DNA of 64,000 bases from Candidatus Hydrogenedentota bacterium (lineage in GTDB: Bacteria; Hydrogenedentota; Hydrogenedentia; Hydrogenedentales; SLHB01). The notes under the pieces were generated by a model. That model made no database searches. It had not been told where the DNA came from and was given only the letters and a program-made list of their open reading frames with translations. Position numbers and translations under genes: made by a program. This document shows, piece by piece, positions 12,216 to 12,594 of this stretch. Positions within the stretch are counted from its first letter, which is position 1. Each line of letters opens with the position of its first letter. The stretch covers positions 576,001 to 640,000 of the forward strand of contig CAXXTH010000017.1 of the NCBI GenBank assembly GCA_963668025.2, given 5' to 3'.

Positions 12216-12332
12216 TTAGACGTATTCGTTCTTTTTCGCGAACACAAAATCGGACCACGCCTTTTGCAGGTCATTCAAAAAGTCCGTAAATGCGTCGGCT
12301 CGCCGGGCTGAGATTTTGCGGATGTGCTTCAC
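12216..12332 (-). CDS. Putative precursor peptide B, 38 aa: MKHIRKISARRADAFTDFLNDLQKAWSDFVFAKKNEYV
   Basis: Hand-translated; GGAGG RBS 7 nt before GTG; TAA at 12218-12216; MKHI leader motif. Confidence 0.85.
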   Translation of the reverse strand: MKHIRKISARRADAFTDFLNDLQKAWSDFVFAKKNEYV

Positions 12333-12456
12333 TATCAAACCTCCACGTACAATTGTCCGCCACTCGATGCGGACAGGTTCCTGTCCTCAAGGCATTTACT
12401 TCACGGTTATACATCCGCTGCTGGCCGCCCAGGCGCTCAACAAATACGCCTTGCGC

Positions 12457-12594
12457 TTAGGCTTCAGCAGCCTTTTTAGTTTGAAGCGCCGTCAACACGG
12501 TGACCGCGAACTGCATCGTCGAGAGGATAAAATCCACATCCACGGTGTCATCGCTGAGATCGGGCCATTTGGTCATTGCTTTAATGTGATTCAC
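12457..12594 (-). CDS. Putative precursor peptide A, 45 aa: MNHIKAMTKWPDLSDDTVDVDFILSTMQFAVTVLTALQTKKAAEA
   Basis: Hand-translated; AAAGGAG RBS 9 nt before GTG; TAA at 12459-12457; MNHIK leader motif. Confidence 0.85.
   Translation of the reverse strand: MNHIKAMTKWPDLSDDTVDVDFILSTMQFAVTVLTALQTKKAAEA

Follow-up and report, generated by a model that had tools for sequence, protein, structure and literature searches.

The 64,000-nucleotide stretch of DNA analysed here, hereafter the window (positions 576,001 to 640,000 of contig CAXXTH010000017.1, assembly GCA_963668025.2, Candidatus Hydrogenedentota bacterium), contains two very short open reading frames (ORFs), which we call pepA and pepB, just ahead of an operon encoding GNAT-fold proteins, a membrane protease, a transporter and a homologue of the radical S-adenosylmethionine (SAM) enzyme CteB. 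We asked whether these frames are real genes and, if so, what relation their products could have to the enzymes encoded next to them. Our analysis showed that pepA and pepB are genuine, conserved small genes. Whether they are precursor-type peptides of a maturation and export system like those of peptides that are made by the ribosome and modified after translation (RiPPs), conserved across Hydrogenedentota and derived from the SCIFF (ranthipeptide) system, we regard as evenly balanced, and this is the explanation that we develop below. The two genes are:

12457-12594, minus strand: pepA, GTG start, 45 amino acids; leader M-N-H-I-K..., hydrophobic helix-like core, then K-K and a four-residue tail
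12216-12332, minus strand: pepB, GTG start, 38 amino acids; a universally conserved "type B" member, directly upstream of g186, the first GNAT-fold gene

pepA and pepB are conserved small genes

Translation of the minus strand reproduced, letter for letter, both peptides as an earlier reading made from the letters alone (the sequence-only reading) had written them, and the GTG starts that it placed behind Shine-Dalgarno (SD) sequences also held, AAAGGAG ending 9 nt before the GTG of pepA and GGAGG 7 nt before that of pepB. The ORF listing starts pepB at a TTG (12338) two codons upstream; as the gap from GGAGG is 7 nt for the GTG against 1 nt for this TTG, and as orthologues begin M-K-H, the GTG is the right start. 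Both peptides open with M[NK]HI[KR], as had been noticed, and beyond this leader they are unrelated (phmmer E = 7), in line with their description as otherwise divergent. When the whole genome was scanned with the proposed motif M[KN]HI[KR].{20,45}KK.{2,6}, pepA and pepB were the sole matches among 275,134 small-ORF starts (20-110 amino acids), and the reversed-genome decoy gave none among 185,216 ORF starts.

Two sets of related loci were compared, namely 20 loci from a genome search (L015-L034) and 80 loci (L035-L114) kept from the 100 confirmed by a pattern scan of one genome per species; 57 of these 80 carry Hydrogenedentota, -tes, -tales or -dens names. Since the sets overlap in genomes, their counts are not additive. 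The tblastn check suggested for pepB came out positive, with a match directly upstream of the g186 orthologue at 19 of the 20 loci in the first set and at 41 of 80 in the second, where many loci are too short to reach that position. Matches to pepA were few (2/20 and 1/80). Listing all small ORFs revealed 1-5 further ORFs with the same start at nearly every locus. We then took a census of leader ORFs, defined by M-[KRN]-H-[ILVMTAF], over the loci that include sequence upstream of the operon. It counted 112 (111 unique) in 41 of 49 loci, again 1-5 per locus, at a density of 1.12 per kb upstream of the operon, compared with 0.034 per kb in the remainder of these loci when both strands are considered. 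The census is circular for His3, because its pattern demands H at position 3; without the pattern filter, 39 of the 41 tblastn pepB matches align from residue 1, and His3 was present in all 39 (KH 35, RH 3, DH 1).

An SD-like tetramer stands at -18 to -5 of 103 of the 111 unique members, compared with 254 of 2240 random positions (11%). Moreover, pepB-type genes are under purifying selection, with a median ratio of nonsynonymous to synonymous substitution rates (dN/dS) of 0.195 over 36 usable pairs from 13 unique genes of 39 amino acids. In public protein collections pepB has relatives in 164 clusters at E <= 0.01, which belong to no Pfam family; where named, they are called "hypothetical protein", and the named ones come from Hydrogenedentes.

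In 36 of 41 loci it is a pepB-type peptide (n = 37, 36 unique) that stands last before g186. M1, H3, A12 and W26 are invariant in this type, and K2, D13, A14, N20, A25 and K33 are present in 90% or more of its members. Insertions in these peptides sit between residue 11 and A-D-A, and we therefore mark the leader-core junction there. The other groups comprise hydrophobic D-I-P... cores, two-Cys L-C-x-N-I-T...C-F cores, and the T-T-G-Q-K-L and N-K-[ND]-P-Q-N-P groups, next to pepA's own group with D-x-x-F-I-[IL]...K-K; a one-round hidden Markov model (HMM) built from the 9 phmmer hits of pepA recovers most of the non-pepB-type members. The DF[IL] that the sequence-only reading took as common to the two peptides was rejected on this comparison, as in pepB it belongs to the pepB-type core, whereas pepA-type peptides have D-x-x-F-[IL] in a different register. 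Its statement that Cys is lacking is right for pepA and pepB but does not extend to the family, 13 of 113 members having Cys after residue 16. Small ORFs with a conserved leader and distinct cores in several paralogues are what is generally expected of RiPP precursors, and this is what the family presents. Eight of the 49 loci have no adjacent peptides; in five of these genomes that were searched, 5/5 hold pepB-type genes elsewhere (E 1e-14 to 2e-22), accompanied by arrays of the other family groups.

The leader is shared with SCIFF precursors

The consensus drawn from position frequencies is M-K-H-[IVL]-[RKT]-x-[IVL]-[ST]-x-x-P-x-x-A, about 14 residues, with Pro 11 in 61 of 113 peptides and Ala 14 in 80 of 113. 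We presumed that SCIFF precursors begin similarly and then checked this with fetched sequences, the sample being metagenome-contig relatives of the true SCIFF maturase P0190 (608 bits on TIGR03974). A Cys-rich ORF of 35-70 amino acids lies within 500 nt upstream of these maturase relatives at 26 of the 34 loci examined. Results showed that KH[ILV]..[ILVM][STN] is present in 19 of the 23 unique SCIFF precursors, versus 9 of 185,216 decoy ORFs, and that its register is that of positions 2-8 of the Hydrogenedentota leader; the Hydrogenedentota peptides in turn carry the K-H-I-x-x-[LIV]-[SN] leader of SCIFF/ranthipeptide precursors. Judged by motif and register, the leader of these peptides is the SCIFF leader. 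We found no literature linking SCIFF with an MKHI leader. In the crystal structure of CteB with CteA, the CteA leader binds the RiPP recognition element (RRE) of CteB as a beta-strand that extends its sheet (PMC6231123).

The cores are not of the SCIFF kind. SCIFF precursors (TIGR03973) have six Cys in a core of about 45 residues and pepA and pepB have none; neither peptide was matched by TIGR03973 at E <= 1 or by any other Pfam or NCBIfam family, and a TIGR03973 search of the whole genome returned none above the cut-off. A PDB sequence search with pepB gave none at E <= 10, the CteA fragment of 5WGG not being retrieved, and a protein atlas search with pepB gave no usable match.

The operon encodes a radical-dead CteB homologue fused to a GNAT domain

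The operon reads, all on the minus strand, pepA, pepB, g186, a 210-residue GNAT, a CPBP protease, an ABC ATPase, an ABC-2 permease and a 642-residue protein. Beyond the peptides, its genes are:

11496-12056, minus strand: g186, divergent GNAT-fold protein of 186 amino acids; Pfam Acetyltransf_3 match marginal, E = 0.013
10824-11456, minus strand: 210-amino-acid GNAT, Acetyltransf_3 (RimJ/RimL-like), Pfam E = 2.5e-16
10057-10956, minus strand: CPBP (Rce1-like, CAAX-protease family) intramembrane protease, Pfam Rce1-like E = 2.6e-9
8981-10060, minus strand: ABC transporter ATPase, DrrA-like by HMM matches
7910-8905, minus strand: ABC-2-type permease, weak ABC2_membrane_3 match (E = 0.0037), syntenic in 77/80 loci
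5985-7913, minus strand: 642-amino-acid CteB-like scaffold with RRE at ~8-74, barrel without CX3CX2C, SPASM remnant CX2CX5C...C and GNAT fold at ~480-640

Among HMMs, the 642-residue protein has a sole clear match, SPASM TIGR04085 (E 3.9e-10), and a weak C-terminal GNAT signal. Its best PDB sequence match is the SCIFF/thermocellin maturase CteB (5wgg_A, E 3.2e-18), colinear from residue 6, with residues 6-100 aligning to the CteB RRE. The AlphaFold 2 (AF2) model, with a predicted local distance difference test (pLDDT) of 72.7, shows three strands and three helices at 8-74, an RRE topology, followed by a beta/alpha barrel, a helical SPASM region and a C-terminal alpha/beta domain. Foldseek also placed 5wgg_A on top (E 9.7e-17, TMt 0.70), and matched the C-terminal domain to the GNATs SpeG, RimL, RimJ and ArsN.

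The radical-SAM motif itself is missing, the ...CNLRCKYC... of CteB aligning to ...PGEDAVEAP... in the window protein, and CX3CX2C, which defines SCIFF maturases, is absent in 12 of 12 aligned orthologues. As it is gone in every member, the protein is incapable of radical-SAM chemistry. Invariant Cys in the 12 orthologues are C24/C26/C29, which form CFCFEC inside the RRE, and C394/C397/C403/C426, which form CX2CX5C...C and which we take to be ligands of a second cluster; compared with the full SPASM signature for two auxiliary clusters, CX2CX5CX3C plus an upstream Cys, the fourth Cys is replaced by Thr and the upstream Cys by Ser.

A profile search was run against 1.84 billion representative proteins and its best 150 were examined. 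Among the best 48 of these, 33 of the 33 full-length proteins (at least 590 amino acids) have no CX3CX2C and 26 have CFCFEC, while among the next 102, 83 of 84 proteins of 400-540 amino acids carry CN(L/M)xCxYC-type motifs. TIGR03974, the SCIFF maturase model, was the best NCBIfam match of all outgroup proteins tested (6/6, two above the curated cut-off); on the same model the 642-residue protein scores 71.5 bits, with the cut-off at 425. The sharp CX3CX2C split and the TIGR03974 outgroup together indicate that the fusion family forms a separate clade descended from SCIFF-type maturases, in which radical chemistry was lost and a GNAT domain gained. Searching the window genome with the 642-residue query gave this single match, and no other CteB-type RRE protein was found there. 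Since a SCIFF-type leader and a sole CteB-type RRE thus co-occur in one genome, leader and reader appear to have been inherited together while the chemistry changed.

The same profile search returned P0197, a 656-residue protein from outside the window, which is also CteB-like and without CX3CX2C (TIGR03974 198.7 bits) and at its C-terminus carries a signal peptidase I domain (TIGR02228, E 3e-15). It would seem, then, that scaffolds of the radical-dead RRE/SPASM kind have repeatedly been put to new use in presenting peptides to other enzymes.

The sequence-only reading had spoken of an RRE. We rejected g186, the 186-residue neighbour of the peptides, as RRE on the grounds of its AF2 model (pLDDT 90.4) and of Foldseek, which gave a GNAT fold with SpeG as top match (6vfm_A, E = 1.4e-12, TMt 0.82); the RRE is the N-terminus of the 642-residue protein. 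The operon therefore holds three GNAT folds, g186, the 210-residue GNAT and the C-terminus of the 642-residue protein. From its mean column identity of 66% over 39 orthologues and its Pfam match, the 210-residue GNAT is the best candidate for an active acyltransferase. The CPBP protein scores 37.7 bits in Pfam with a cut-off of 22.4, and E179, E180, R184, F215, H219, H257, R260 and E263 are invariant in 27 orthologues, so that the EExxxR, FxxxH and HxxRN-type motifs of glutamic intramembrane proteases are intact. Its listed TTG start overlaps the GNAT gene, and the true start is therefore probably further downstream.

Of 41 genomes from the family and order to which the window belongs, 40 contain the 642-residue protein, and the single genome without it is 97% complete. 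The gene order pepB-g186-GNAT-CPBP-ABC-ABC-fusion is retained in both locus sets wherever contigs reach, and in 41 of 49 loci the peptides adjoin this operon, which encodes an RRE protein, as would be expected of RRE-dependent RiPP precursors. Directly upstream of the peptides lie gltB and gltD (glutamate synthase; 12801-19455, minus strand), an arrangement shared by 21 of the 80 loci, or about one in two of those that extend a full 9 kb upstream, and with no functional link evident. The DZR protein encoded at 4807-5772 was rejected as a member of the system, as it had no tblastn match in the 80 loci. At one locus (L023, G028:C42:53000-66510) tblastn found the permease and the fusion protein only, with 10 kb upstream devoid of GNATs, CPBP, ATPase and pepB; in this genome the operon may have been reduced or rearranged.

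Two further elements flank the peptide genes:

12679-12707, minus strand: promoter-like site (TTGATT, 17 nt spacer, TG-TATACT) in the interval from gltD to the peptides, ~85 nt upstream of pepA; a consensus match only
12147-12193, minus strand: G+C-rich hairpin with a U-rich run behind it, shortly past the pepB stop

Three promoter-like sites were found, with 1.2 expected in shuffles. The hairpin has a minimum free energy of -38.1 kcal/mol over 106 nt (z = -2.1) and is not listed by the terminator scan; we note it as a possible terminator that would attenuate transcription from the precursors into the enzyme genes. We take both elements as consensus-level hints only.

A lysine is conserved in the cores

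In pepB-type peptides the conserved K33 is followed by a second K in 29 of 37 sequences. Lys occurs after residue 16 in 75 of the other 76 peptides, and in 43 of them just once; 63 of the 76 have no Arg in this region. Summed over these non-pepB-type peptides, Lys:Arg after residue 16 is 115:19, versus about 1.25:1 in the leader (K 11.9%, R 9.5%). We picked an anchor Lys by a heuristic, as the Lys that follows the longest uncharged stretch; the next residue (n = 75) is E in 26, K in 11, N in 9 and D in 8 peptides, and the tail beyond the anchor has 2-34 residues with a mode of 5. The "KK plus exactly four residues" described for the two window peptides is correct for both of them but does not hold for the family, in which the second Lys is variable and the tail differs in length. 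The sequence-only reading had tied its case to conservation of the HI and KK motifs, and not both are lost, since His3 is kept in every pepB match that could be scored and one Lys near the C-terminus is conserved, only the second Lys being variable.

The preference for Lys over Arg argues for a role that needs an amine or a Lys-specific enzyme, not mere positive charge; acylation is a plausible candidate. That the conserved Lys is the acyl acceptor is put forward tentatively, as a proposal on the doubtful side.

Leader-bearing ORFs elsewhere in the genome

We also looked for the leader outside the operon. In the window genome an ungapped position-specific scoring matrix of the leader gave 7 real hits versus 0 decoy hits at score >= 14, and a leader HMM 11 versus 2 at score >= 10. 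The neighbours of these scattered ORFs are unrelated genes (ferritin, a TetR/HlyD/MacB efflux set, a histidine kinase, a nonribosomal peptide synthetase, porins). Only one of them showed core homology to an in-locus peptide of another genome, a 33-residue ORF about 235 kb from the operon and outside the window (G000:C17:823209-823310), whose core matches L061:4555 (E 2e-5); since L061:4555 lies inside an operon array, at least one family member in the window genome is unlinked from the operon. A porin-linked pair of leader ORFs is doubtful, because it was not found in 25 relatives and lies inside an open frame of 127-136 amino acids. With unrelated neighbours and one core homologue only, we do not count a "genome-wide family" of leader ORFs among our findings.

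Several other ORFs with similar starts were recorded in the same genome. Two tandem ORFs of 51-54 amino acids (G000:C24:31104-31268 and G000:C24:32440-32595, L124) have an M-[KR]-H leader and Cys-rich cores with 8-9 Cys each; they lie between an AnmK kinase gene and the gene of a 1032-residue protein without Pfam match, with no TIGR03973 match and no SPASM protein nearby. Four consecutive ORFs of 44-70 amino acids (G000:C23:302665-303602, L118), with M-K-H-[IV] starts, a P-A-K-A motif and low to moderate leader scores of 5.8-9.8 bits, lie between genes for a TPR protein and a CheX-like protein. A 99-residue ORF beginning M-K-H-T-K-K-M-Q... occurs in more than 25 identical or near-identical copies on at least 7 contigs of G000 (e.g. 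C10:826216-826515 and C17:784420-784719), none of them seen in the window, and is presumably part of an insertion sequence or other mobile repeat. A group II intron reverse transcriptase/maturase gene (G000:C22:176519-177982; L116:3519-4982, minus strand) adjoins a ferritin gene and a high-scoring leader-bearing ORF of 36 amino acids (C22:178998-179108).

Proposed pathway and competing explanations

We consider it rather probable that the peptides are substrates of the operon machinery. In the pathway that we propose, the leader of about 14 residues would dock on the N-terminal RRE of the 642-residue CteB homologue, which, having lost radical-SAM chemistry and kept four SPASM Cys, would act as a scaffold and offer the peptide that it holds to the fused GNAT domain as well as to the two separate GNAT-fold proteins. 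The likeliest chemistry would be that the single conserved Lys behind the hydrophobic or amphipathic core is N-acylated, probably acetylated; as the operon lacks acyl-carrier and fatty-acid genes, acetyl-CoA would be the default donor. The leader and/or the polar tail after the Lys would then be removed by the CPBP protease, and the ABC-2 transporter may export the product. A complex prediction for the 642-residue protein with pepB, both given as alignments, scored 0.20 (mark 0.32) and counts neither way for binding.

Several observations weigh against this explanation. The same lack of an acyl-carrier or fatty-acid gene speaks against it, two of the three GNAT folds give marginal HMM matches only (E ~0.01) and may be inactive, and the Lys is replaced by Arg in one family member, with another having no Lys after residue 16. 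Linkage between peptides and operon is not obligatory, as the arrays can be unlinked (8 of 49 loci), and all loci come from one phylum and hence are not independent. Furthermore, the pattern-free check of His3 removes the circularity of the census for pepB only. Finally, the cores are not a hypervariable library: there are about five orthologous groups of them, all conserved phylum-wide, and the evolution of pepB resembles that of a housekeeping protein. It looks as if a fixed physiological role, as envelope, signalling or membrane micro-proteins, fits the peptides better than that of a classical antibiotic RiPP.

Within the same system, and with the same docking of leader on RRE, the GNATs could instead acetylate the alpha-amino terminus that leader removal sets free, the Lys serving as a recognition or cleavage determinant for CPBP or as a membrane-flanking charge. 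Alpha-N-acetylation of ribosomal proteins is a RimJ/RimL-type activity, and the strong GNAT of the operon, in Acetyltransf_3, is of the RimJ/RimL type, which makes this the main rival within the model; the fold matches of the fused domain include RimL and RimJ as well. In addition, the usual E, K, N or D after the anchor Lys resembles a protease or topology motif, and Ala 14 after Pro 11 could mark the site of leader cleavage. However, a pure charge or topology role would accept Arg, which the 115:19 ratio does not bear out, and the putative core N-termini are not conserved between groups. Overall we judge alpha-N-acetylation unlikely.

The peptides could also be unmodified membrane-active peptides, bacteriocin-like or signalling, for which CPBP (Abi-type) and ABC-2 proteins would provide immunity and export, with the GNATs and the dead maturase not acting on them. 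CPBP proteins and ABC-2 transporters are a common immunity/export pairing of bacteriocins, and the cores are indeed hydrophobic or amphipathic. On the contrary, the presence of the operon in 40 of 41 genomes, its fixed order and the purifying selection on pepB are unlike strain-variable bacteriocins, the leader matches a CteB-type RRE encoded in the same operon, and neither a double-glycine leader nor a C39 peptidase was seen in Pfam/NCBIfam scans of the window proteins. This explanation seems to us quite improbable.

A further possibility is that the ORFs encode small membrane proteins or small regulators, or act as upstream ORFs to tune expression of the operon, with no substrate relation to the enzymes. 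The hairpin and U-run after pepB would suit such a role, as would the arrays that are sometimes unlinked from the operon and the leader-bearing ORFs in unrelated neighbourhoods of this genome. Against it, the amino-acid sequence is conserved and not just the reading frame, a SCIFF-type leader and a CteB-type RRE co-occur, and 5/5 tested genomes with an "orphan" operon still encode the peptides; we accordingly rate it as very improbable. Chance open frames in an intergenic region, suggested by small size alone, are refuted by the conservation, the SD sites, the dN/dS and the 164 public homologue clusters, and the likelihood that we leave to them is negligible.

Relation to known systems

The leader-guided system proposed here shares most with SCIFF (CteA/CteB, 5WGG, TIGR03973/TIGR03974). 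The 642-residue protein is a colinear CteB homologue with RRE, barrel and SPASM, its nearest non-fused relatives are SCIFF maturases, and the precursor leader K-H-I-x-x-[LIV]-[STN] stands in identical register. The differences are that the CteB homologue has no CX3CX2C, four SPASM Cys, a new invariant CFCFEC in the RRE and a C-terminal GNAT, that the cores have a conserved Lys in place of six Cys, and that two GNATs, a CPBP protease and an ABC exporter are present in the operon in addition. To our knowledge, the biological role of SCIFF peptides is still unsettled.

A precedent for the proposed chemistry is given by the selidamides, ribosomal lipopeptides with an acyl group on Lys or Orn. According to PMC8784127, the GNAT maturases KspN, PhaN and NpuN acylate Lys or Orn side chains, Lys at core termini being noted as a likely site, and the precursors combine an NHLP or Nif11 leader with a Gly-Gly junction, a lanthionine synthetase usually being present as well. 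The two systems have in common a GNAT in the cluster, there a RiPP maturase and here a candidate represented by three GNAT folds, and a Lys at the core edge as candidate acceptor; what bears on acylation here, and indirectly, is the one conserved Lys and the Lys:Arg bias. They differ in that here a SCIFF-type leader and a dead radical-SAM scaffold would serve as guide; neither Pfam nor NCBIfam matches the peptides to an NHLP or Nif11 leader.

The gene complement resembles that of skf (sporulation killing factor) and sag (streptolysin S), with their SkfC/SkfEF and SagE: one or more precursors, a maturase homologue that carries an RRE, a membrane protease of the CPBP family, and an ABC transporter made up of ATPase and permease. 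Those systems use active radical-SAM or cyclodehydratase chemistry on Cys, and none is seen here. CAAX processing offers an analogy only, in that an Rce1-family protease with intact motifs would meet a nucleophilic residue followed by a short dispensable tail; the residue is Lys and not Cys, the tail has 2-34 residues and not three, and there is no prenyltransferase.

Neither the peptides nor the fusion are covered by a Pfam or NCBIfam family, and in the literature, represented mostly by titles and abstract openings, we found no description of a CteB-GNAT fusion without CX3CX2C, of these peptides or of a Hydrogenedentes RiPP of this type. The logic of leader, RRE, maturase, protease and exporter is known, whereas the combination of a radical-dead SCIFF-maturase scaffold fused to a GNAT with Cys-free, Lys-bearing peptides as its putative substrates is not known to have a precedent.

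Implications for Hydrogenedentota

In conclusion, the proposed SCIFF-derived system would be a case of a RiPP recognition module re-used for a different chemistry, in which the leader-RRE address label was kept, radical chemistry was dropped and acyl-transferases were recruited. As it is a core trait of a whole uncultured phylum and not a sporadic cluster, a physiological role of the peptides is suggested. The fullest version of this explanation is a long shot: a radical-dead scaffold would guide GNATs to N-acylate one Lys on about five micro-proteins, a CAAX-family protease would trim them after the acyl-Lys and the ABC transporter would deliver them to the envelope, all as a core, phylum-wide process. 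If true, it would be a Lys-based counterpart of CAAX processing and would define a new class of ribosomal acyl-peptides, with housekeeping rather than antibiotic functions. Moreover, the same leader on scattered small ORFs would then mean that the operon is a general sorting and maturation machine for leader-tagged micro-proteins.

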